This document shows, one piece after another, positions 9,371-53,014 of a stretch of 64,000 nt of DNA. The stretch spans positions 1,128 to 65,127 of the forward strand of contig CAZWLE010000001.1 in assembly GCA_964634305.1 (NCBI GenBank). Reading direction: 5' to 3'. The translations under genes and the position numbers were made by a program. The DNA comes from an uncultured Candidatus Saccharibacteria bacterium (GTDB lineage Bacteria > Patescibacteriota > Minisyncoccia > Phycocordibacterales > Phycocordibacteraceae). The notes below the pieces were generated by a model. The model was not told the origin of the DNA and did not search any database. It saw only the letters and a list, made by a program, of their open reading frames with translations. Position 1 is the first letter of the stretch. Each line of letters opens with the position of its first letter.

Positions 9371-10396
9371 ATGGCCCACCAGTCCCTCTATCGCACGTAT
9401 CGCCCTCAGAAATTCTCCGACGTAGCGGGGCAGCCGGAAGTCGTAACTGTCCTCACCGAGCAGATAAAGGAGAAGACGGTTGCGCACGCATACTTGTTTG
9501 CGGGGTCGCGTGGTCTTGGTAAGACCTCAGTAGCTCGTATCTTCGCTAAAGAATTGGGCGTCACCGATAAAGACCTGTACGAAATAGATGCAGCCTCTAA
9601 TAACAGCGTCGATGGTATCCGTGACCTTACGGAAAACGTACTCACGCTTCCCTTTGAATCTCCCTACAAATGCTATTTGCTTGACGAAGCGCACATGCTC
9701 TCAAAAGGCGCGTGGAATGCGTTCCTGAAGACACTTGAAGAACCACCTGCGTACGCGCTCTTTATTCTTGCAACGACAGAACTCGATAAGGTGCCTGAGA
9801 CGGTACAGAGTCGCTGCCAAGTCTTTGAGTTTAAAAAGCCAACGCGTGACGGCCTTGCCACGGTTGTTGAGAAAATAGCTAAGAAGGAAGGATACGTGCT
9901 TGAAGCGGGAGTAGCTGACCTGGTCGCTTTACTTGCCGACGGGTCGTATCGCGACGCGCTCTCTATACTCGAGAAACTCTTCTCTGTCGCACATGATAAG
10001 ACCGTAAGTCGCGCAGAAGCAGAGAAGGCGACAGGAGCGCCAAAACAGGCACTCGTCATTACCCTTCTGTCTGCGCTTTCTGAAGGGAAGGCCGATGGCG
10101 CACTCATGGCAATACGCAAGGCTGCTGACGGCGGCGTTGATATGCGTCTCTACCTCTCGTTGGTGCTCGACGCGATGCGTTCTGTGCTTCTTCTTCGCCA
10201 CGCGCCAGAGCTCGCAAAAGAGATTGAAGCTGAGTCAGGTGAAGCCTTTACTGAACTGTCTGCGCTTGCAAAGGGAACCGGTATCACGCACGAGACCTTG
10301 AAACGGTTCCTTGATGCGGCAGCACGTGTACGTTACTCCCCTGTTCCCGCGCTCCCGCTCGAGTTAGCAACACTAGAAAGTATTGGACATGGCTAA
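9371..10396 (+). CDS. dnaX: DNA polymerase III gamma/tau subunit, short form (clamp-loader AAA+ only)
   Basis: YRPQKFSDVAGQ, Walker A GSRGLGKTS, Walker B LLDEAHML and SRC motif. Only 341 aa, so the tau C-terminal domains are absent. Confidence 0.85.
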   Translation: MAHQSLYRTYRPQKFSDVAGQPEVVTVLTEQIKEKTVAHAYLFAGSRGLGKTSVARIFAKELGVTDKDLYEIDAASNNSVDGIRDLTENVLTLPFESPYKCYLLDEAHMLSKGAWNAFLKTLEEPPAYALFILATTELDKVPETVQSRCQVFEFKKPTRDGLATVVEKIAKKEGYVLEAGVADLVALLADGSYRDALSILEKLFSVAHDKTVSRAEAEKATGAPKQALVITLLSALSEGKADGALMAIRKAADGGVDMRLYLSLVLDAMRSVLLLRHAPELAKEIEAESGEAFTELSALAKGTGITHETLKRFLDAAARVRYSPVPALPLELATLESIGHG

Positions 10397-14453: not shown

Positions 14454-14640
14454 TAGCACATCGCGCCACGTGTGGTACCGTTCTCTTACGGTCGTTCTTA
14501 CTCACCCCCTAAACCAAATCCACCATGGACGGAGACCAGAATCAGCCGACGGAGGGTGAAGTCGTTGAAACGCCTGTTGAGGCAGAAACGGCAGCCCCTG
14601 AGGCAGCACCCGAGGCGTAAGCCTCGCGAACGCGATACAC

Positions 14641-14672
14641 AAAAGGACGCTCTTCGGAGCGTCCTTTTGTGT
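14641..14672 (+). terminator. Intrinsic terminator
   Basis: AAAGGACGCTC-ttcg-GAGCGTCCTTT followed by TGTGTT. Confidence 0.5.
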
Positions 14673-25106: not shown

Positions 25107-26765
25107 ATGACGCAGGACGAGGCACTCTCGATTCTAAAGACCGGTGCGAACGCATTTCTGACCGGAGAGCCGGGCAGCGGCAAGACGCATACAGTAAACG
25201 CATATGTACGGTGGCTGCGGTCGCATGGTATCGAACCAGCGATTACTGCCTCAACGGGTATTGCTGCAACGCACGTAGGCGGCATGACCATTCATGCGTG
25301 GAGTGGTATTGGTATCCGTGAATATTTGTCGCCCTCTGATGTTGATGCGATTGCGTCCAAAGAGCATGTGGCTCGTCGTATTGGGAAAGCAACGACGCTC
25401 ATCATCGATGAAATCTCAATGCTCTCTGGCGAAGCACTTACTATGGTTGATAGTGTGTTGCGTGAAGTACGTCGCGATGACCGTGCGTTTGGTGGGCTTC
25501 AGGTCGTTATGGTGGGTGACTTCTTCCAGTTGCCGCCGGTCGGGAAAGCCGGACGCCCGGCTTCTTTTGCGTTCCAATCCGCTGCGTGGAATGCACTCAA
25601 TCCCCTGACGCTCTATCTAGAAGAACAACACCGTCAGGAAGATACGGAGTTTACTGACCTTCTCGGTCGCATACGAAGCGGTACGGCGGACCATAGTGAC
25701 GTATCGCGCATCATGTCCCGTGAGACAGAAGACGATGAAGGTACGCGTGAGTTGCCGCGCCTTTACACGCATAACGCTGACGCTGACCGCGAGAATGCGA
25801 GTAAGCTCGCGGCACTCCCCGGCACAGTGCGTACGTGCTACATGGACGCCACCGGTCCTGATGCGTTGGTAGACGCTCTAAAACGTGGCTGTTTGTCGCC
25901 AGAGCAGCTTGAACTTAAAGAAGGGGCGGTGGTGATGTTCACGAAGAACAATCCGATGAGTGGCTACAGTAACGGCACGATTGGGGTTGTGGAGGGATTT
26001 GAAGGAGGGAGCGGGTATCCCGTCGTGCGCACTCGCGATGAGCGCACGCTTATCGTGATGCCCCAAGACTGGGCCGTTGAAGAGAACGGTAAGGTGCGTG
26101 CAAAGCTCTCTCAGGTGCCACTGCGTTTGGCGTGGGCTATCACCGTGCATAAAAGCCAAGGCCAATCGATTGATGCTGCTCTCATAGACCTTTCACGCGC
26201 GTTTGAATACGGTCAAGGATATGTAGCACTCTCTCGCTTACGTTCGCTTGAAGGGTTGCATCTTCTTGGCTGGAACGAAAATGCCCTCATGGTGCATCCT
26301 CTGGTTGCGCAAATGGATACTATATTTCGCGCGTCCTCTCATGAAGCGGCACGAATTTTTGGTGCTCTCCCAGACCGTGCACAGTTAGAGAACGATTTCA
26401 TACGAGCGTCTGGCGGAACGCTTCAAGCGTCGAGCGATGGCGAGCGAAAGGGAAAGCCCTCCACCTATGACACTACCTACGAACTCATAACGGAAGGTAA
26501 AAGTCTGTTGCTCATCGCTAAAGAGCGAAACATGACGGTTGGCACTATCGTCACGCATCTTGAGAAGCTCTACGAAGCGGGACGGCTTGAGCTAGATGCA
26601 ATTGCAGAGCTTTCACCAAAGGCAGTGGTAGACGGTCTTGGGGTTATTGGCGAGGCATTTACCAAAGCGAAGACCTCATCGCTCACTCCGGTGTTTAAAC
26701 GCCTTAAAGGGAAGTACACCTTCGACGAATTGAAACTCGCACGACTCCTCCTTTCGGACTCCTGA
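25107..26765 (+). CDS. PIF1/RecD-family SF1B DNA helicase with C-terminal HTH-like extension
   Basis: Walker A GEPGSGKTH, Walker B LIIDEISM, MVGDFFQLPPV and AITVHKSQGQS motifs, plus a roughly 150-aa C-terminal tail. Confidence 0.7.
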   Translation: MTQDEALSILKTGANAFLTGEPGSGKTHTVNAYVRWLRSHGIEPAITASTGIAATHVGGMTIHAWSGIGIREYLSPSDVDAIASKEHVARRIGKATTLIIDEISMLSGEALTMVDSVLREVRRDDRAFGGLQVVMVGDFFQLPPVGKAGRPASFAFQSAAWNALNPLTLYLEEQHRQEDTEFTDLLGRIRSGTADHSDVSRIMSRETEDDEGTRELPRLYTHNADADRENASKLAALPGTVRTCYMDATGPDALVDALKRGCLSPEQLELKEGAVVMFTKNNPMSGYSNGTIGVVEGFEGGSGYPVVRTRDERTLIVMPQDWAVEENGKVRAKLSQVPLRLAWAITVHKSQGQSIDAALIDLSRAFEYGQGYVALSRLRSLEGLHLLGWNENALMVHPLVAQMDTIFRASSHEAARIFGALPDRAQLENDFIRASGGTLQASSDGERKGKPSTYDTTYELITEGKSLLLIAKERNMTVGTIVTHLEKLYEAGRLELDAIAELSPKAVVDGLGVIGEAFTKAKTSSLTPVFKRLKGKYTFDELKLARLLLSDS

Positions 26766-39299: not shown

Positions 39300-41363
39300 A
39301 TGGCCAATTTTAAGCTTCACACTCCTTTTCCTCCGGCAGGTGACCAGCCGGAAGCTATCAAAGCACTTACTAAAGGTGTTGCGGACGGTCTCATGCATCA
39401 GACCCTTCTTGGGGCGACGGGTACCGGAAAGACCTACAGTGTCGCAAACGTAATTGCAGCGGTTGATAAGCCGACGCTCGTCTTGGCGCATAACAAAACG
39501 CTCGCGGCACAGCTTGCGCAGGAGTATCGCGAGTTTTTCCCTGAGAACGCAGTGCACTACTTCGTTTCCTACTACGACTTCTATCAGCCAGAAGCATATA
39601 TCGCGCACTCTGATACCTACATTGAGAAAGAAGCACAGATTAATGCAGAGATTGATCGTCTACGTCATGCGACCGCACAGTCCTTGCTGACGCGTAAGGA
39701 TGTGATTGTGGTGGCTTCTGTATCTGCTATCTATGGTCTCGGGTCACCAAAGGAGTACGCGAACGCTATTTTGAAACTGGAGAAAGGTGGGGAAGAGAAT
39801 CGTGCGGCACTCGTGCGTAAACTGGTGAATATTTATTTCGAGCGCACCAATGCTGACCTTCTCCCAGGTACCTTTCGCGCGGTTGGTAACAGCCTCGAGC
39901 TCATGCCGGTCAACGAGCAGGTTATCTTCCGCTTTGCATTCGACGGCTCGCAGATTGCCGCTATTGAGTGCTTGGACCCGGTGAGTCGTGCCAAGAAGAG
40001 CGAACCCGATTCCCTCTTTGTGTTTCCTGCTAAGCACTTTGTGACCACTGAAGATGACCGCAATCGCGCGATGGAAGACATTAAGCTTGAACTTGATGAA
40101 CAACTAGAACGATTTAAGCGTCTTGAAAAACCGCTTGAGGCAGAGCGCTTGAAGCGCCGCACGCTCCATGACCTCGCGCTTATACGCGAGATTGGCTACA
40201 CGAACGGTATTGAGAACTATTCGCGTCACTTTGACGGACGTAGCGCGGGTGAGCCACCACACACCCTCCTTTCGTACTTCCCGCACAAGAAGGATGGAAG
40301 TCCCGACTTCCTTACGGTCGTCGACGAATCGCACGTCACCATTCCGCAGATAGGCGGCATGTTTGCGGGAGACCGTTCTCGTAAGGACAACTTGGTGGAA
40401 TTTGGATTCCGTCTCCCGTCTGCACGCGATAACCGTCCCCTTACCTTTGATGAGTTTGAGACGCGTGTCGGTCAGCGCATCTACACCTCTGCAACCCCAG
40501 GACAGTATGAGAAAGAGCACTCAGTGGCTCCCCACGGACAAATCGTGCAGCAGATTATTCGTCCGACGGGTCTCGTTGACCCAGAGCTCACGATTCGTCC
40601 GGTTGCGGAAACGGGTGAGTACAAGGGTCAAATTGCTGACTTCATTGCTGAAACCGAAGCCGTGATTGCTCGCGGTGGTCGTGCCATTGCGACAACGCTC
40701 ACGAAGCAGATGGCAGAAGACCTCACCGAATTTCTTAAGGAGCGCAAGATTAAGGCGGAGTACCTTCACTCTGATGTGAAGACCATAGACCGCATCACAA
40801 TTCTTACGGAGTTCCGTAAAGGTACATTCGATATTCTTATCGGTGTGAATCTCTTGCGTGAAGGCCTCGACCTTCCGGAGGTAGAGCTCGTTGGTATTCT
40901 CGACGCCGATAAGGAAGGCTTCCTCCGCTCTGAAACCTCGCTTATTCAGACCATAGGGCGCGCCGCACGTAACGTGCTTGGCCGTGTGATTCTCTATGCC
41001 GATGTGATGACCGGGTCACTGACGCGCGCTATTGAGGAAACCAACCGTCGTCGCGCTATACAGCTCGCATACAACGAGAAGCACGGCATTACGCCAAAGA
41101 CGGTGGTAAAGAAAATCCACGATATTGCTGAAGGCATGCGCAGTGAGCACGACAAAACAGTTAATGCGTTGCTCTCGCTTGATAAGAAGCTGTTTGAGAA
41201 GGACCCAGAACGCTTTGCAAAGGAACTTCGTGCACGCATGGCAGAGGCAGTAGAGTCTTTAGATTTTGAGACCGCTGCCCTTATTCGCGATGAGCTCTAC
41301 GAGTTGGAAGGGAACGCACCGAAGACCAAGAAGCTTCGCAAGAAGCGATTTGGCACAGGATAA
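39300..41363 (+). CDS. uvrB: Excinuclease ABC subunit B
   Basis: SF2 helicase motifs (GATGTGKT, DESH), a beta-hairpin region and a C-terminal UVR domain (ALIRDELYELEG). Length 687 aa. Confidence 0.95.
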   Translation: MANFKLHTPFPPAGDQPEAIKALTKGVADGLMHQTLLGATGTGKTYSVANVIAAVDKPTLVLAHNKTLAAQLAQEYREFFPENAVHYFVSYYDFYQPEAYIAHSDTYIEKEAQINAEIDRLRHATAQSLLTRKDVIVVASVSAIYGLGSPKEYANAILKLEKGGEENRAALVRKLVNIYFERTNADLLPGTFRAVGNSLELMPVNEQVIFRFAFDGSQIAAIECLDPVSRAKKSEPDSLFVFPAKHFVTTEDDRNRAMEDIKLELDEQLERFKRLEKPLEAERLKRRTLHDLALIREIGYTNGIENYSRHFDGRSAGEPPHTLLSYFPHKKDGSPDFLTVVDESHVTIPQIGGMFAGDRSRKDNLVEFGFRLPSARDNRPLTFDEFETRVGQRIYTSATPGQYEKEHSVAPHGQIVQQIIRPTGLVDPELTIRPVAETGEYKGQIADFIAETEAVIARGGRAIATTLTKQMAEDLTEFLKERKIKAEYLHSDVKTIDRITILTEFRKGTFDILIGVNLLREGLDLPEVELVGILDADKEGFLRSETSLIQTIGRAARNVLGRVILYADVMTGSLTRAIEETNRRRAIQLAYNEKHGITPKTVVKKIHDIAEGMRSEHDKTVNALLSLDKKLFEKDPERFAKELRARMAEAVESLDFETAALIRDELYELEGNAPKTKKLRKKRFGTG

Positions 41364-41381
41364 GGGTGCTACCATTACGTC

Positions 41382-42473
41382 ATGAGCTTTAGGGCTATCC
41401 TTGGCATTGTCCTCGTTGTAGCGGTGGCCATCGCTATTGCCGTCATTGTTCTCACGATGGTGTACCTTCGTGTGGAAGTAACCGCTCTCTTTTCAACAGA
41501 GGTTGCTCTTGAGATTCAACACTCCCTTTCTCGCATACTGATGATGCAGGCCGGTGCACTACTCGCGCTCACCATCATTCTTTCAGGAGCCACTTTTATG
41601 ATTGTAGGTTCTCTCGTTGCAAAGCCGTTAAAGCGCCTTGCACATGCTATTGATACCTACGCTGAAACAGGCACACGAGAAGAAATCCCTGGTATTAGTG
41701 AAGCACCGACGGAAATTCGTCGGATTGCAGTGTCGTTCGATAAGTTGATTGAGCGACTCGATATGTCACATAAGCGTGATACGGAAATGGCACGAGTGAA
41801 GTCTGACTTTATTTCAACCGCTGCGCACCAATTTCGTACACCCCTGACCGGTATTCGCTGGGCTCTTGAAGCACTCCAGAAGGAACAACTAACGGAGAGC
41901 CAGAAGGCTCTTGTGGAGAGTGCCGTTGGTAAGTCAAAGGATTTGGTGGGTATTGTAGGTACGTTGCTCGATGTCTCTGCGATAGAGTCAGGGAAGTATA
42001 AATATGCGTTCCAGCCTACCGACATCGATGCTCTTCTTAAAGAACTTGCAACGGATTTTGGTCCCCTTGCGGCTAAAACCCAGGTATCCCTTTTTTATTC
42101 GCATGAGTCTCCCGGTGCCATCATGGCGCGTGCTGACCGCGAACGCATTAAGTGGGTGCTAAACAATCTCATTGAGAACGCAATTACCTACACGCCCGCA
42201 GGCGGTACGGTCCGTATTTCTATGGAGGAATCAGAACAGCGCATTTATGTGCGCGTGAAGGATACCGGTATCGGTATTCTTGCTACTGACCGCGCTAACA
42301 TCTTTGAGCGCTTCTACCGTGCACAGAACGCTATTGCTAAGCAAAACCAAGGGAACGGTCTTGGCCTCTATATCGCTCGCACTATCGCTACCGACCATGG
42401 CGGAGAGCTCAATTTTGCGCCAAATGAGGAGGGCCCAGGTACTACCTTCACTCTCTCCTTGCCACGAGCGTAG
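41382..42473 (+). CDS. Sensor histidine kinase (2 TM, HAMP-like linker, HisKA, HATPase_c)
   Basis: H-box STAAHQFRTPL, N-box NLIENAITYT, and G1/G2 boxes (DTGIGI; GNGLGL). Confidence 0.8.
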   Translation: MSFRAILGIVLVVAVAIAIAVIVLTMVYLRVEVTALFSTEVALEIQHSLSRILMMQAGALLALTIILSGATFMIVGSLVAKPLKRLAHAIDTYAETGTREEIPGISEAPTEIRRIAVSFDKLIERLDMSHKRDTEMARVKSDFISTAAHQFRTPLTGIRWALEALQKEQLTESQKALVESAVGKSKDLVGIVGTLLDVSAIESGKYKYAFQPTDIDALLKELATDFGPLAAKTQVSLFYSHESPGAIMARADRERIKWVLNNLIENAITYTPAGGTVRISMEESEQRIYVRVKDTGIGILATDRANIFERFYRAQNAIAKQNQGNGLGLYIARTIATDHGGELNFAPNEEGPGTTFTLSLPRA

Positions 42474-42491
42474 AGTGCTATCATTGAGGCT

Positions 42492-42899
42492 ATGGCTGAC
42501 ACTAAGTTTATCCTCGTCGTTGAGGACGACCCTATCCTCAAGAACCTCCTTGGGCACACCTTTGCAGGAAAGTACCAGACGCTCTACGCGTCTGACGGTA
42601 ATGAAGCACTTTCGCTCTTTGAGGCGAATAAGCCGTCACTCGTACTTCTCGACCTCATGCTGCCAACCATGGATGGGTTTGCAGTCCTTGAAACTATCCG
42701 AAAGCGCACAGATGCATTGAAAGATGTGCCAATTATTGTCGTCTCCAACCTTGGCGCTGATACCGATAAGGAACGTGCGAAGACGCTTGGCGCGACGGAA
42801 TACCTCGTGAAGGCAGAAGTATCAGTAGAAGAAATTGTTGCGAAGATTGAAGGCATGCTCGCGACTCTTTCTGCCACAGAAGCGACTCCTGCCGCATAA
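42492..42899 (+). CDS. Single-domain response regulator (CheY-like receiver only)
   Basis: Receiver fold with EDD acidic pocket, phospho-acceptor D in LVLLDLMLP, and conserved T/K positions. No output domain. Length 135 aa. Confidence 0.8.
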   Translation: MADTKFILVVEDDPILKNLLGHTFAGKYQTLYASDGNEALSLFEANKPSLVLLDLMLPTMDGFAVLETIRKRTDALKDVPIIVVSNLGADTDKERAKTLGATEYLVKAEVSVEEIVAKIEGMLATLSATEATPAA

Positions 42900-42979
42900 C
42901 GTGTGTAGTCGCTTGGGATAACCCAATTTGCTATACTCCATACTGAACCGGTCCCGCCAAGGACTGGCTATTCTCATAG

Positions 42980-45613
42980 ATGACGGCAAAGAAACCAAAA
43001 CCTGAGCACGAGCAATTCACCGGAGAAGACTGGATTACGGTGAAGGGTGCGCGTACCCACAACCTCAAAAACCTCTCGGTAGAAATGCCACGAGGGACTA
43101 TGACTGTGCTTACCGGTCTATCTGGCTCAGGTAAGTCATCACTTGCCTTCGACACTATTTTTGCCGAAGGACAGCGTCGCTATGTAGAAAGCCTCTCCGC
43201 GTACGCTCGCCAGTTCTTGAATCAGATGCAAAAGCCAGACGTGGATGAAATCACGGGCCTCTCTCCAGCTATCTCTATTGATCAGAAATCACGCTCCAAT
43301 AACCCACGTTCAACGGTAGCAACGGTTACGGAAATCTATGACTATCTGCGCGTGCTCTATGCGCGTGCAGGTCAGCCGTACTGTGTAAATCACGATGTGC
43401 CTATTTCAAAACTCTCTAAGGAAGAAATGATTGGCATGGTGATGAAGCGAGTAAGTGAGAAGACGAATCCAAAGGGAGAGAAGGTGATGGATGTGACGCT
43501 TGATAGGACACAGGTGGTGCTCTATGCGCCGGTCGTGGTTGGTCGTAAGGGCGAGTACTACCAGCTGCTCTATGACCTCCTTGGTAAGGGATACGAACGC
43601 GTTGTCATCGACGGTAAGCAGCAGTCACTTCGTGAGAAGGTGTCGCTCGACCGTAACAAGCGCCATGACATTGATGCGGTCGTAGACTCTATTTTTGTTT
43701 CTGAGTTCGCTCGTACCCCTGATGCAGCGCGTGAGCGTCTCTCAGAAGCGCTTGAGCTCGCACTCAAAGAAAGCGATGGGCTTGTAAAGATTGGTCATGC
43801 TGACGGCACAGTAGAAACCCTTTCTTCTCGCTTTATCTGTCCCGAGGATGGTGCGTCCTTCCCAGAAGTAGAGCCACGTCTCTTCTCGTTTAATAGTCCG
43901 TACGGTGCTTGTCCTACCTGTAACGGTCTTGGCACGGAGTCACTTTTTTCAGATGCGATTTGTCCTGAATGTAACGGAAAGCGTCTTCGTCCTGAGGCAC
44001 TGCGTGTCTACCTCAAGGATAAGAAGGACAAGACGCTCGGCAAGAACGTCGTTGAAGTGACGCATATGTCGATAAAAGAAGCGAAAGACTTCATGGATGG
44101 TCTCCATCTCTCTGAAATGCGTGCAGAGATTGCGGCGCCAATCATTCGCGAAATCACCTCTCGCTTGGAGTTCATGCTAAATGTGGGTCTTGATTACCTT
44201 ACCCTCGACCGTTCTGCAGCGACCTTGTCTGGCGGTGAAGCGCAGCGTATTCGTCTTGCTTCGCAGCTTGGTACGGGACTCGTAGGTGCGTTGTACGTGC
44301 TTGATGAGCCAACGATTGGTCTCCATCAACGCGATAACGACCGCCTTATCAAAACGCTCATATCATTGAAGGAGCTTGGTAATACGATTCTTGTCGTTGA
44401 GCACGACGAAGATACGATTTATGCGGCTGATTACATCGTAGACATTGGTCCTGGAGCGGGCGTTCATGGCGGTACGGTTGTCGCCTCTGGATGGCTTGAT
44501 GAACTGCTTACCGCTCCAAAAAACACCTCAGGTTCACTCACGCTGTCCTATCTTCGTGGGGAGAAGGAAATAGCCGTACCAGAAGAGCGTCGTACGAGTG
44601 AAAAGGGGACGATTAAGGTGCGTGGTGCAACGCTGCACAATCTTAAGAATCAGAATGTTGATGTGCCGCTTGGTAAGCTCGTGTGCATCACGGGCGTATC
44701 AGGTTCCGGTAAATCAACGTTCCTGTACGACATTCTCCATAAGAATGTAGCGGCACGCTTTGCTAAGCGCGAGGCGAAGCCAGAACATATCGCCTCTATT
44801 ACCGGTACTGAGTACGTCTCTCGTACGGTACTCATCGACCAGTCTCCGATTGGTCGTACGCCACGCTCTAACCCTGCCACGTACACCGGTGCATTCACGC
44901 ATATTCGTGACCTCTTTGCGGCAACGCCTGAAGCACGTGCACGTGGCTGGAAGCCAGGACGCTTCTCGTTCAACGTTGCAGGTGGCCGTTGTGAGACCTG
45001 TCAGGGTAATGGCGTTATTGCAGTTGAGATGCACTTCTTGCCGACCGTCTATGTGACCTGTGACGTCTGTAACGGTACGCGGTTTATGAAAGAGACGCTG
45101 GAGGTTCGTTATCGTCAGAAGAACATCTTTGAAGTACTGCAGATGACGATTGAAGAGGCAGAGACCTTCTTCAAAGATATTCCGGCTATTCAGGAGCGTT
45201 TGGAGCAGCTCAACCTCACGGGTCTTGAATACCTCACGCTCGGTCAGTCAGCCACCACGCTATCAGGCGGTGAAGCACAGCGCGTGAAGATTGCGTCTGA
45301 ACTCTATCGTCCGACGACCGCAAAGACGCTCTACCTTCTCGATGAGCCAACCGTAGGACTCCACTACGAGGACGTTCGTAAATTGATTGAAATCCTTCAG
45401 GAGCTTGTGCGCCGTGGCAACACCGTTGTAGTTATTGAGCACAATCTCGACCTCATTAAGTGCGCTGACTATCTCATCGACTTTGGTCCAGAAGGAGGCG
45501 TTGGTGGCGGTAAGGTGGTTGCAAAGGGTACACCAGAGGAAGTTGCAGATACTGAGGGCTCACACACTGGAGAATATCTTTCAAAGATGTTCCGTAAGAA
45601 AAAGAAGAAATAG
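42980..45613 (+). CDS. uvrA: Excinuclease ABC subunit A
   Basis: Two ABC ATPase modules, each with Walker A (GLSGSGKSS; GVSGSGKST), LSGGE signatures and interdigitated zinc fingers (CPTCNGLG; CETCQGNG). Length 877 aa. Confidence 0.95.
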
Positions 45614-45747
45614 CAATCGGCGCGACTAGGTCATAGTCACGCCGGCGCTTCGGAATGAGCTGGTTCCCGATAAAGGGAGCTGAATCCGTTGCATGCGCAC
45701 AATACCTTAATATTTTAGAGTGTCAAATTTGATGGTACTATAGGCAT

Positions 45748-47040
45748 ATGCAGCGTGCAGAGTTAGCGAAATTCGAGCTTCCTGACTGTCCTGGCGTCTA
45801 CCTATTCACGAAGGGTAAAGGACGGTCAAAAAAGATTCTCTATGTAGGTAAAGCAACGTCGCTTCGGGACCGTACCCGAAGCTATTTTGACGATGACCTC
45901 ATAGCAACGCGTGGGCCTCGCATCGTCGATATGGTCACACTTGCTGACGGTATCAGCTATGAGACGGCACCGACCGTGCTTGAGGCGCTTGTGCGTGAAG
46001 CAGCGCTTATTCGTGAGCATCGTCCCAAGGCGAATGTTGAAGGGAAGGACGATAAGACGTTTTTGTATGCCGTCATTACTGACGAATCCATCCCGCGCGT
46101 GCTTGCGGTTCGTGGTGGAGAGCTTGATTTCAAAAAGAAGTGTTGGAACACCTCACCAAAGGTGAAACTCCGCGCTATCCATGGTCCGTTCCCGTCTGGG
46201 TATCAGCTGCGCGAGGCATTGCGTCTTATTCGTCGTATTTTCCCCTTCTACGACACGCAGCGGCCGGTAGGTGAAGGTTCTCGCTTTACGGAAGGCAAGG
46301 TGGAATTCAATCGTCAAATTGGTCAGTACCCGCGTGACCTCGACCGTACGGGCTATCTTCGCTCCATACGAAACGTATCCATGTATCTGTCTGGACGGGT
46401 GAAAACGCTTCGTAAGGACCTGGAGAAGCAGATGCGGGACGCAGTGAAAGCAGAGCGCTTTGAAGACGCAGGACTTGCCCGTAATCAGCTGTTTGCGCTC
46501 GACCATGTCCAAGATATCTCTCTTATCCGTGAAGACCGCAAAGAGGAGCAAGATGAGCCACGTATTGAGGCATATGACACGGCACATCTTTCAGGCACGA
46601 ACGCGATAGGCGTCATGGTGGTTATTGAGAATGGTCTCCCTAACAAGAAGGAGTACCGCACCTTCCGTATTCGTGGCTGGGGTGGCACTGCAGTAAGCGC
46701 GGGAGGTAAGCAGGTAAAGCAGCTCAATGACGACATTGCGTCGCTGAAGGAATTGCTCTCACGTCGATTTGGCCATCCAGAATGGCAGTACCCGAAGGCG
46801 ATTGTCGTGGACGGCGGTAAGACGCATAAGAAAGCAGCAGAAGAAACACTTGCAGAGATGGGCATCAAGATTCCCGTTATTGCGGTGGTAAAAGACGAGA
46901 AGCACCGCCCCCGTGAGGTTATTGGAAGTCTTCGCGCGGGTATTCCTGATGCGTCGGTGGTGCTTGCAAACTCTGAGGCGCATCGCTTCTCCATCACGCT
47001 TCATAGGAAGGCACGCTCTCGGCGTATGCGGGCAGCTTGA
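45748..47040 (+). CDS. uvrC: Excinuclease ABC subunit C, compact form
   Basis: N-terminal GIY-YIG (GVYLFTKGKGRSKKILYVGKATSLRDR), UVR domain (RFEDAGLARNQLFAL) and RNase H-like endonuclease domain (RIEAYDTAHLSGTNAIGVMVV). Only 430 aa with no C-terminal (HhH)2. Confidence 0.8.
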   Translation: MQRAELAKFELPDCPGVYLFTKGKGRSKKILYVGKATSLRDRTRSYFDDDLIATRGPRIVDMVTLADGISYETAPTVLEALVREAALIREHRPKANVEGKDDKTFLYAVITDESIPRVLAVRGGELDFKKKCWNTSPKVKLRAIHGPFPSGYQLREALRLIRRIFPFYDTQRPVGEGSRFTEGKVEFNRQIGQYPRDLDRTGYLRSIRNVSMYLSGRVKTLRKDLEKQMRDAVKAERFEDAGLARNQLFALDHVQDISLIREDRKEEQDEPRIEAYDTAHLSGTNAIGVMVVIENGLPNKKEYRTFRIRGWGGTAVSAGGKQVKQLNDDIASLKELLSRRFGHPEWQYPKAIVVDGGKTHKKAAEETLAEMGIKIPVIAVVKDEKHRPREVIGSLRAGIPDASVVLANSEAHRFSITLHRKARSRRMRAA

Positions 47041-50102: not shown

Positions 50103-50342
50103 TTGGTATACTTTAACCACATGGCACGTTCCCCTGAAGGTCCTAGTAATCCGTTAGAACAGCAGCGTGCTGCGCTTTTGCGGCGTGTGTTTAGGCTCCG
50201 ACAAAACCCTAAGATTTTTGGTAACCCCGTATCTTCTCAGCATCTAACCAACATAGAAAATCTTATTAAGAAAGCTCCTGAGAAACTAGAACTCAGTACC
50301 TACGAGTTAGTGCTTTCTGAACTGGAAGAAAATTTGAAGTAG
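50103..50342 (+). CDS. Hypothetical small protein (79 aa), AT-rich
   Basis: ORF only. No motif. Confidence 0.25.
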   Translation: MVYFNHMARSPEGPSNPLEQQRAALLRRVFRLRQNPKIFGNPVSSQHLTNIENLIKKAPEKLELSTYELVLSELEENLK

Positions 50343-50370
50343 GAAAGTTGTGTATGTTGTGTGGAATAGT

Positions 50371-50384
50371 TGTGTAGATACACA
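50371..50384 (+). promoter_or_regulatory. Inverted repeat TGTGTA-GA-TACACA (candidate LexA operator) within a cluster of TGTGTA hexamers (50348–50410)
   Basis: A near-perfect palindrome 24 nt upstream of the lexA-like ATG. Additional TGTGTA copies lie at about 50351, 50393 and overlapping the start. Confidence 0.4.
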
Positions 50385-50401
50385 CTTTCGAGTGCTAAGG
50401 T

Positions 50402-51100
50402 GTGTATATGTCTCACAACGACTCACTCACTGCTGCACAGGAAGAGACGCTCGCCCTTATCAAGCGTCACATCGCCCGCCATGGACAATCACCGACCATC
50501 TTGGAGCTTAAGCAAGCTCTTTCGCTCCGTTCTATCCGCTCTGTCACTCAGCGCCTCGAAGCGCTCGAGCGCAAAGGATTCATCTCTCGAGACCGGTTTC
50601 AGCACCGAAGCATTAAGGTCTTGGGAACCATCTCCACCCAGTACCTCGCGTCGGATTTCATAGCGGTTCCTGTCATCGCGTCTGCAGGCTGTGACGCGAT
50701 GGAGGTATTCGCTCAGGATGAATTTGGAGAGTTTATTGCGGTTGACCGGAAGCTTGTCGGTCGTGCGACCTCAATTGCTGGTATTAAAGCAGTAGGAGAT
50801 TCGATGATAGACGCTGGTATACATAATGGCGATTACGTTATCGTAGAAGTCACTGACCAGGTAGGAAATGGTGACCGTGTGGTAGCTATCATTGGGAATA
50901 TGGCAGTCATAAAGCGTTATGAGCAGGCACAGGGCGTTACGCTCCTGCACCCTGAGAACGCGAAGGAAAGCTACACACCTATTGTGGTTAGCGAGGAAGA
51001 TTCAAAGATATTTGGAAAAGTACTCTCCATAATTCCAGGAATAGAATGGCAGGATGACGTAAAAATCGAGTATTACGACGGCTACGGACCATCTCTCTAA
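50402..51100 (+). CDS. lexA: LexA-type repressor (wHTH plus S24 peptidase)
   Basis: N-terminal LexA DNA-binding domain (LTAAQEETLALIKRHIARHGQSPTILELKQALSLRSIRSVTQRLEALERKGFISR), Ala-Gly cleavage site (ASAGCDA), and Ser (VGDSM) and Lys (AVIKRY) catalytic dyad. The start is probably the ATG at 50408, preceded by an AAGGTG Shine-Dalgarno. Confidence 0.8.
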   Translation: MYMSHNDSLTAAQEETLALIKRHIARHGQSPTILELKQALSLRSIRSVTQRLEALERKGFISRDRFQHRSIKVLGTISTQYLASDFIAVPVIASAGCDAMEVFAQDEFGEFIAVDRKLVGRATSIAGIKAVGDSMIDAGIHNGDYVIVEVTDQVGNGDRVVAIIGNMAVIKRYEQAQGVTLLHPENAKESYTPIVVSEEDSKIFGKVLSIIPGIEWQDDVKIEYYDGYGPSL

Positions 51101-51147: not shown

Positions 51148-52443
51148 ATGCAGGCCACCTCTTTTACATTCTGTTCATACAAGATAGATACAGAGCGTTC
51201 GATTGTGACGTTTTCGTACAGGGTAGAGTTTGCATTTGGTTTGCACTATACCTTCACTGATTCTCTTGTTTTCAAAGGAGTACCGTCTACTGCGTGGGCG
51301 AAGATACCAAAGGAAGTACTTGAACCAACGCTTCAAGCATTGCTTCTCATGCTCGGTATCAACTACTGGAGCTTTTTTCGTGCCAAAGATATTCGTATAG
51401 AAGGATTTACCCTTACCTGTGAACAAGCTCATTTCTGGGATACGCTCTACCTCAATGGACTAGCTGAGTTCTTTTATCTTGCAAAGATTGATTTCCGTAA
51501 CCTCATAGCGTTTCCCTATAGCGAAACGGTAGATGCGCCTCACCCCATAGAGTTCAAGCGACCATCACGCTCACTCCTGCTAAACGGCGCAGGCAAAGAC
51601 TCAATACTGTCAGCAGAAATGCTAAAAGAACAAGGACGGTCTTTTGACTTTTTTGCCTTTTCTCCTACACGCGCTCACCACCGAATTGCAAAGCTGGTAG
51701 GCGCAAAGTCTATAGAAGTCGAGCGCCGATACGACCCGTTGCTGAAATCGTTTGTGACGGGTGCTTACCCCTCAGTCTCTACCTTTACCTTCATTGCAGT
51801 ACTGCTTGCGGAACTCCTTGGGTACGACTCCATTGTTTTCTCTAATGAACGAAGTGCCGATATTGGAAATCTCGACTACCTGGGGCTACCGGTAAACCAC
51901 CAATGGTGCAAATCATCTGAGGCAGAGAAGCTCATAAACGACTACCTTCAGAGGTACATAACCCGCGATATCACCACGAGTTCCTTATTGCGACCGTACA
52001 GCGAGCTAGCGATAGTGCAGCGCTTCGTGCGCTATCCGCAGTACCACCACTATGTAACGAGCTGTAATACCTACTTTTGGCTTAGTCCTCTAGAGCAGTT
52101 CTTTGCACCCACCAATTACTGGTGTAAACGCTGCCCGAAATGTGTCTTTCTTTTCGCGTGCTTTGCAGCCTTTCTTCCAAAAAAGGAGGTTGTTTCTATC
52201 TTTAGGGGTAACGTGCACAGTAAAAAGCACCTTTTACCTCTATACAAAAGCATCCTGGGCATCGAAGGCTTTAAACCACTCGATTGTGTGGGGGAACCAG
52301 AAGAAATGATACTTGCTATGCACTATGCCTTAGAGCGAGGGGAGTATGGGGAAGAGCCTGCTATGAAGCTCTTTACTGAGCATTTCCCTAATAAGCATGA
52401 CTATGCCTCACTTGAGAAGAAAGTCTTCACGGACACGGTATAA
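51148..52443 (+). CDS. Hypothetical 431-aa protein with a PP-loop-like (SGGxDS-type: LNGAGKDS) motif and a C-terminal CxxCxxC cluster
   Basis: LLLNGAGKDSILSAEML resembles the adenine-nucleotide alpha-hydrolase / PAPS-reductase-like P-loop, and WCKRCPKC looks like a metal site. The rest is not recognisable. AT-richer than neighbours. Confidence 0.35.
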   Translation: MQATSFTFCSYKIDTERSIVTFSYRVEFAFGLHYTFTDSLVFKGVPSTAWAKIPKEVLEPTLQALLLMLGINYWSFFRAKDIRIEGFTLTCEQAHFWDTLYLNGLAEFFYLAKIDFRNLIAFPYSETVDAPHPIEFKRPSRSLLLNGAGKDSILSAEMLKEQGRSFDFFAFSPTRAHHRIAKLVGAKSIEVERRYDPLLKSFVTGAYPSVSTFTFIAVLLAELLGYDSIVFSNERSADIGNLDYLGLPVNHQWCKSSEAEKLINDYLQRYITRDITTSSLLRPYSELAIVQRFVRYPQYHHYVTSCNTYFWLSPLEQFFAPTNYWCKRCPKCVFLFACFAAFLPKKEVVSIFRGNVHSKKHLLPLYKSILGIEGFKPLDCVGEPEEMILAMHYALERGEYGEEPAMKLFTEHFPNKHDYASLEKKVFTDTV

Positions 52444-52756: not shown

Positions 52757-53014
52757 TTAGGAGAGGTGAGCCGAGACGAGCTTAGTCATCTCGAACATGG
52801 TTACCTCACCCTTACCACCAAAGATAGCCTTAAGCTTGTCATCCGCGAGAATGTTGCGCTTGTTAGCAGGATTCTGGAGGTCATTCTTCTTGATGTACTC
52901 CCAAATCTTCTTGGTAACTTCGGAACGAGGCATAGGGCCCTTACCTACAACCGCTTCGAGGTCTGCGGAAAGGTTCATTGGCTTTGAAAGGGCCGGATTG
53001 AGTGCTCTTGGCAT
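52757..53014 (-). CDS. SWIB/MDM2-domain protein
   Basis: KKIWEYIKKNDLQNPANKRNILADDKLKAIFGGKGEVTMFEMTKLVSAHL matches the SWIB fold signature. Length 85 aa. Confidence 0.6.
   Translation of the reverse strand: MPRALNPALSKPMNLSADLEAVVGKGPMPRSEVTKKIWEYIKKNDLQNPANKRNILADDKLKAIFGGKGEVTMFEMTKLVSAHLS

Follow-up and report, generated by a model that had tools for sequence, protein, structure and literature searches.

A direct-repeat array upstream of lexA in Patescibacteria, a probable autoregulatory LexA operator

The lexA gene described here is preceded by a cluster of TGTGTA words, which raises two questions: whether these words form the site through which LexA regulates its own gene and, if they do, which arrangement of them constitutes that site. 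LexA stands out among bacterial regulators for the many changes that its binding motif has undergone, and around 17 LexA motifs, direct repeats included, are on record. The first-pass annotation of the window, i.e., the whole stretch of 64,000 nucleotides analysed, proposed the inverted pair TGTGTA-GA-TACACA as a possible autoregulatory site, which would then define a lineage-specific SOS box unlike the canonical ones. Here the cluster is compared with the promoters of related lexA genes, with the DNA surrounding those genes and with the LexA boxes described in other bacteria.

The gene downstream of the repeats had been called lexA-like, and its product bears this out. Domain searches found the LexA N-terminal winged-helix DNA-binding domain (PF01726, 1.5e-16, residues 6-66) and the C-terminal S24 peptidase domain (PF00717, 1.3e-20, residues 93-205), and the protein scores 143 bits against the NCBIfam lexA equivalog TIGR00498, which passes the cutoff of 110.95. 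Inspection of the translation places a predicted Ala-Gly cleavage site (VIASAG/C) and a putative Ser/Lys dyad (GDSM and AVIKR) where they are expected in LexA, and ortholog alignment fixes the start codon as the ATG at 50408. The recognition helix, S-[ILV]-R-S-V-T-Q-R, is conserved across the family; that of E. coli LexA is S-P-N-A-A-E-E-H. A single family member, locus L003, carries a substitution (V to L) in this otherwise invariant helix, and it is also the sole locus with GGTGTGTAT half-sites. The window comes from a Patescibacteria genome of the Paceibacteria type, and all related contigs are likewise from Patescibacteria, under the labels Paceibacterota, Kaiserbacteria, Taylorbacteria or Parcubacteria.

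The stretch 50346-50407 reads AGTTGTGTAT-GTTGTGTGG-AAT-AGTTGTGTAG-ATACACACTT-tcgag-TGcTAAGGT-GTGTAT, and the ATG follows directly. Its elements are listed in Table 1.

Table 1. The lexA gene and the sequence elements upstream of it, in window coordinates.
Feature	Sequence	Position	Strand	Basis
lexA CDS, 230 aa		50408..51100	+	PF01726 and PF00717; TIGR00498 equivalog
R1 half-site	AGTTGTGTAT, core TTGTGTA at 50348-50354	50346..50355	+	18.6 bits of maximum 18.6
R2 half-site	TGTTGTGTGG, core TTGTGTG at 50357-50363	50355..50364	+	9 bp after R1
R3 half-site	AGTTGTGTAG, core TTGTGTA at 50370-50376	50368..50377	+	12.8 bits; 22 bp after R1
Inverted half-site	AAGTGTGTAT, plus-strand TACACA at 50379-50384	50378..50387	-	9.2 bits
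Palindrome (R3 and inverted arm)	TGTGTAgaTACACA, TGTGTA-GA-TACACA	50371..50384	.	exact match, pattern search
Fifth half-site, between -10 and start codon	AGGTGTGTAT	50398..50407	+	14.4 bits
Extended -10, ending 6 nt before ATG	TGcTAAGGT	50393..50401	+	TGnTAnnnT family conservation
Proposed LexA dimer site, R2-R3	TGTGTG-GAATAGT-TGTGTA	50358..50376	+	direct repeat, 13-bp period, A-rich spacer

Counted from the start codon, R1 and R2 occupy -60 to -45, R3 with the inverted arm -38 to -24, and the fifth half-site -10 to -1. R3 (-38 to -32) overlies the -35 position, and the fifth half-site overlies the presumed transcription start. Within the R2-R3 pair the two hexamers, TGTGTG at 50358-63 and TGTGTA at 50371-76, are separated by the spacer GAATAGT. 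The palindrome lies exactly where the first-pass annotation had placed it, both by reading and by pattern search. Of the two further TGTGTA hexamers it reported at about 50351 and 50393, the first stands, at 50349-50354, and the second does not, the letters there being GTGCTA, part of the TGcTAAGGT element. Another hexamer had been said to overlap the start codon; this word, at 50401-50406, ends 2 nt before the ATG and overlaps just an unused in-frame GTG at 50402.

Single words of this kind are not unusual in the window, their crowding at lexA is. TGTGTA occurs 24 times in the window against 22 expected, and the palindrome with up to two mismatches twice against 1.8 expected, so that neither is enriched. 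A half-site matrix applied at a threshold of at least 9 bits, at which about 7.75 sites are expected over 64 kb, returned six sites, of which four fall within the 62 bp upstream of lexA. This local clustering of half-sites far exceeds chance. The 15-mer TTGTGTATGTTGTGT from the R2 region occurs once in the 64-kb window; its matches in a small viral collection (at least 120) are background.

The arrangement of the words becomes clearer among relatives. We assembled a set of 34 lexA promoters, free of redundancy, from relatives whose LexA shares 53-83% protein identity; the promoter alignment and its information content cover 27 promoters, and the counts of spacing and of the -10 element 28. All 34 carry a conserved block, AAR-TTGTGTAT-G-TTGTGTR-GATAA-S-TTGTGTA, made of three direct repeats at offsets of 0, 9 and 21-22 bp. 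The offset from R1 to R2 is 9 bp in 22 of the 28 promoters, and in the family R3 lies 21-22 bp after R1 and 12-13 bp after R2. Information content is highest on R1 and R2, and R1, near-invariant in the 27 aligned promoters, is the best conserved element of the array. At the position of the fifth half-site, a TGTGT or ACACA word is found in about half of the relatives.

The inverted arm behaves differently from the direct repeats, and this bears on whether the site is a classic palindromic SOS box, i.e., one LexA dimer on TGTGTA-N2-TACACA with the other TGTGTA words accessory or incidental. Most relatives do have an inverted arm, the arms are perfect over 10 bp in L003, L006 and L194 (e.g., ACTTGTGTAT-ctc-ATACACAAGT), and the bases flanking them co-vary within a locus. 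However, the co-variation is shared by R1, which lies outside the palindrome: the two bases preceding TGTGTA change together among the copies of a locus, giving AGG in L003 and ACT in L006 and L194. Furthermore, the inverted arm follows R3 at a spacing of 0, 4, 7, 8 or 18 bp (TGTGT to ACACA) among relatives with the same recognition helix, and roughly a third of the promoters have no inverted arm at all, whereas the direct repeats are far better conserved. Since the arm varies in spacing and is often missing while R1-R2-R3 are near-invariant, the palindrome is the variable part of the block and the direct repeats are its constant part. The palindrome is thus displaced as the core of the site, and we regard a classic palindromic box as unlikely. 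In L201 and L202 the other strand carries a further direct-repeat pair, formed by the inverted arms themselves.

Whether the array is specific to lexA was addressed in 268 kb of family DNA and then in approximately 160 kb more, giving about 425 kb in total, centred on lexA. Clusters of at least three half-sites occur exclusively at lexA promoters in the 268 kb, and this holds for the added loci. A direct-repeat model, TGTGTA-N6/7-TGTGTA with up to one mismatch, which has a chance rate of approximately 0.8 matches per 64 kb, gave 18 matches at lexA promoters and one unrelated match in the ~425 kb. In the window, pattern and matrix scans found no array or half-site cluster upstream of uvrB (39300), uvrA (42980) or uvrC (45748), in agreement with the earlier statement that the palindrome is absent upstream of these three genes. 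No site was found upstream of any gene other than lexA in the window or the flanks that make up the ~425 kb centred on lexA, and neither the window nor the flanking DNA around the family lexA genes holds a recA or translesion polymerase gene. The upstream neighbours of lexA vary between loci and the 431-aa gene downstream of it is not syntenic in the relatives, so the array travels with lexA alone; an operon of lexA with that downstream gene was rejected on the same lack of synteny.

The approach has a positive control in the distant LexA homologs returned by the same searches, which have GAAC-N4-GTTC upstream and no TGTGT clusters. With the cluster present in every family promoter, found nowhere else in the related DNA scanned, and replaced by GAAC-N4-GTTC at distant lexA genes, two further claims of the first-pass annotation, that the cluster belongs to lexA and that it is lineage-specific, are upheld. 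As no second target occurs in the ~425 kb, the site is tied to lexA by position only, and any factor regulating lexA would give the same pattern of position.

A link to LexA itself comes from comparison with known boxes. The LexA of Balneolaeota binds the direct repeat TTACACATATTTTWTACATA, which on the other strand is TGTGTA-N7-TGTGTA, as demonstrated by EMSA and site-directed mutagenesis at the Balneola vulgaris lexA promoter (Kilic et al. 2020, PMC7739468). A Balneolaeota site given in the same paper, TTACACATACCTTTTACACA, reads TGTGTA-AAAGGTA-TGTGTAA on the other strand, and the targets of this LexA include recA and polymerases IV and V (PMC7739468). All 34 family lexA promoters contain a site of this form, with two half-sites sharing the TACACA/TGTGTA core in direct orientation, a period of 12-13 bp and an A/T-rich spacer, and 13 of 20 positions agree between R2-R3 of the window and a Balneolaeota site. 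The LexA proteins come from unrelated phyla, and the likeness of the sites is incomplete. Unlike the Balneolaeota site, the array in the window has at least three direct copies, an inverted copy and the extra 9-bp period between R1 and R2; the half-sites are flanked by S-T before TGTGTA in the window family and by T-A after it in Balneolaeota; and lexA is the only target found in the ~425 kb around lexA, in contrast to the recA and polymerase targets of Balneolaeota. The 9-bp R1-R2 period, being without counterpart in the Balneolaeota site, counts against reading the array as a LexA operator.

Other LexA boxes are less alike. The GTTC-N7-GTTC box of Alphaproteobacteria and Acidobacterium, a direct repeat with an 11-bp period, resembles the array in not being a palindrome but differs in its GTTC half-site and in consisting of a single pair. 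The Gram-positive (Cheo) box CGAAC-N4-GTTCG and the E. coli box CTGT-N8-ACAG are autoregulatory sites of lexA promoters, where more than one copy may occur, but they are palindromic with fixed spacing and other half-sites, unlike the array in the window. Neither of these two patterns occurs within 50300-50410, and the cluster indeed differs from them, as had been stated.

The LexA network of Patescibacteria has itself been studied (Sanchez-Osuna, Barbe and Erill 2017, Environ Microbiol 19:3465, PMID 28618189). The LexA KKW01361.1 from a member of Parcubacteria (GW2011_GWA2_48_9) and a Collierbacteria LexA are reported to have been validated experimentally, and in a subsequent publication the same group cited this work as an instance of direct-repeat recognition by LexA. 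The published motif, as described in that citing paper, and the array in the window thus have direct repetition in common. KKW01361.1 is not among the best 120 matches of two homolog lists, nor is it in the homolog clusters inspected. In our judgement it is rather likely that the 2017 motif is the same as that of the window, or a close variant. The array therefore resembles a validated LexA motif of another phylum, within a superphylum whose LexA network is already published, and it is not a new kind of box, given the EMSA-validated TGTGTA-type repeat of Balneolaeota and the direct-repeat motif that, by the citing description, was published for Patescibacteria.

The promoter into which the array is built is also conserved. 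A TGnTAnnnT element, i.e., an extended -10, lies at -14 to -17 from the ATG in 24 of the 28 promoters and leaves 6-8 nt up to the start codon; loci L001-L012, L192-L211 and L274-L278 share this position. No Shine-Dalgarno sequence is present between the extended -10 and the ATG in the family promoters, and given the 6-8 nt available, the lexA mRNA is probably leaderless. A promoter scan requiring two hexamers found nothing at lexA, which is as expected because such a scan needs both a -35 and a -10, and extended -10 promoters may lack a -35. By the distance between R1 and the -10, the family promoters form three classes, of 35-36, 44-46 and 55-58 bp. These classes lie approximately 10-11 bp apart, so that, with respect to the promoter, the array would keep to a single face of the helix, which suggests a face-of-helix constraint between the two.

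One locus shows an unusual variation of this promoter. In L211, a stretch of ~145 bp at 9837-9985 (Ga0172374_1000008) is inserted directly after the leaderless ATG of lexA, leaving the operator and the -10 intact and shifting the LexA open reading frame downstream. The ends of the insertion are terminal inverted repeats of ~21 bp, CCAGTAGGACAACTTCGGAT ... ATCCGAAGTTGTCCTAACTGG. Its close relative L197 is without the insertion, and no other copy was found among 278 loci.

Given these observations, we consider it likely that the 62 bp at 50346-50407 are the autoregulatory operator array of a Patescibacteria lexA and are organised as direct repeats. LexA would recognise a word of approximately 7-10 bp, A-S-K-TGTGTA-T, which is present three times in direct orientation (R1, R2 at +9 bp and R3 at +21-22 bp), once inverted, and once between the -10 and the start codon. 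By analogy with Balneolaeota LexA, the R2-R3 pair (TGTGTG-N7-TGTGTA, 13-bp period) would be the likeliest site for one LexA dimer bound head to tail, and R1, the inverted arm and the fifth site would probably recruit more LexA cooperatively. Transcription is predicted to start from the extended -10 TGcTAAGGT at or next to the ATG, yielding a leaderless mRNA, so bound LexA covering -60 to -2 would block RNA polymerase. Self-cleavage of LexA, stimulated by RecA, would then free the promoter. The placement of the block is not the same throughout the family: about a quarter of the relatives have it upstream of the core promoter, at -72 to -43, an unusual position for simple steric repression that counts against a repressor array.

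This placement is what brings in a second regulator of lexA, e.g., an activator, that would bind the array upstream of the core promoter with spacing by helical turns, as in class I activation. The steps of approximately 10-11 bp between the R1-to--10 classes fit an activator or a looping mechanism as well, and in loci of class C, e.g., L009, a good -35 (TTGCAA-N17-TATAAT) begins just after the end of the block. Against this, autoregulation by LexA is near-universal, a validated LexA site has a matching half-site, period and spacer, and the window and most relatives have extra half-sites over the -35 region and the transcription start. No candidate for a second regulator is linked to the lexA locus, and we give such a regulator only a small chance of being the binder, LexA being the more probable one.

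The repeats might also be DnaA boxes, which would either make lexA a DnaA-controlled gene or place a DnaA box inside a LexA operator, with replication status linked to lexA expression in both cases. In one register the block offers three 9-mers 11 bp apart in the same orientation, as DnaA arrays do. The sequence following R2, TGTGGATAA / TGTGTATAA (reverse complement of TTATNCACA), is perfect in 9 of 28 promoters and within one mismatch in 27 of 28; this DnaA-like sequence, TGTGnATAA, amounts to one near-consensus box per family promoter. In the window promoter, however, the best match to TTATNCACA has two mismatches, R1 is invariably TGTGTATGT, with two mismatches at the TT end of the box, and R3 also has two. 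The conserved S-T that precedes each TGTGT is foreign to the DnaA box, and the ATAA part, with just 0.2-1.2 bits, falls where the Balneolaeota LexA site has its A-rich spacer. The surroundings offer little more: GC skew keeps its sign and points to no origin here, the neighbours of lexA are uvrC, ddl and SWIB, and the genes upstream differ from one locus to another. DnaA control is accordingly quite improbable. A replication origin at lexA was likewise rejected on GC skew.

A role of the inverted repeat at the RNA level, whether in terminating the upstream open reading frame or as a leader hairpin, is extremely improbable: R1 and the inverted arm can be drawn as a hairpin, but its fold energy is no better than that of shuffled sequences (z = -1.17), there is neither a T tract nor a terminator call, the conserved -10 puts the array upstream of the transcript, and the directly repeated copies are unable to pair with one another.

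Two other candidates were considered and rejected. In an NrdR box the half-sites are oriented as ACAC...GTGT, and both NrdR and CRP-like sites require a fixed spacing; neither fits the array in half-site orientation and spacing. Among viral sequences (IMG/VR), the loci L092, L103, L107, L151 and L156 look like a lexA promoter. They are near-identical AT-rich phage copies of the form GTTGTGTAT-GTTGTGTCA...CTTGTGTAT-GT-TGATATCAT, i.e., three repeats followed by TGATATCAT, and the match was judged coincidental because every downstream frame on that strand is broken by stops.

Returning to the LexA operator array, what it would mean depends on how far it departs from the sites already described. 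It is possible, but we put it forward tentatively and with more doubt than confidence, that the array differs from the 2017 motif and is an unreported LexA operator of a large Paceibacteria clade (Kaiserbacteria-/Taylorbacteria-type, hundreds of members), in which a rigid three-copy direct repeat keeps helical phase with an extended -10 promoter giving a leaderless mRNA, and which arose by convergence on the Balneolaeota type or by transfer from it. If this were true, lexA may be the main or sole target in these streamlined genomes, and the near-consensus DnaA box between R2 and R3 may couple replication initiation to LexA levels. A defined operator for a large uncultured clade would make the SOS regulon of reduced genomes readable from metagenomes. 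With it there would also be two independent cases of a direct-repeat LexA site of the TGTGTA type, which has a bearing on the way in which a repressor that binds as a dimer changes between palindromic and head-to-tail binding. In practice the gain is modest, in that the principle is known, a study of Patescibacteria exists and lexA is the only target found in the ~425 kb.

Several observations were made on the genes around lexA. The 431-aa gene just 3' of lexA (51148-52443, +) resembles MurL, the UDP-MurNAc-L-Ala-L-Glu epimerase; it matches NF041275 with E = 1.5e-74 and 251 bits, far under the 700-bit equivalog cutoff, has no Pfam match and is missing at that position in all relatives. Beyond it, at 52757-53014 (-), an 85-aa SWIB/MDM2-domain protein is encoded, which lies close 3' of lexA in nearly all close relatives and has 85-94% protein identity, much above that of neighbouring genes. 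On the other side of lexA, uvrB, uvrA and uvrC span 39300-47040. The UvrC (45748-47040, +) is short, at 430 aa; its matches at E <= 1e-5 cover the UvrC RNase H-like endonuclease domain only, and its N-terminus appears GIY-YIG-like by eye.

Farther from lexA, the half-site scan came upon a long inverted repeat at 14636-14672, TACACAAAAGGACGCTCTTCGGAGCGTCCTTTTGTGT, which resembles a hairpin terminator acting in both directions and has nothing to do with the lexA array. At 25107-26765 (+) the window encodes a PIF1-like helicase with a C-terminal HTH_40 domain, an architecture that is also found just 3' of lexA in L275 (11479-13155). In that locus, lexA is situated between two copies of an rve transposase. 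In a divergent subfamily (L271, L273 and L278, with LexA of ~224-233 aa), lexA is divergent from a gene for a fusion of ParB_N with an N6_N4 methyltransferase and adjoins large serine recombinases, together with a rolling-circle Rep in L278. The context of lexA in this subfamily and in L275 looks like that of a mobile element, unlike the housekeeping synteny of the clade of the window, yet the repeat block is the same.
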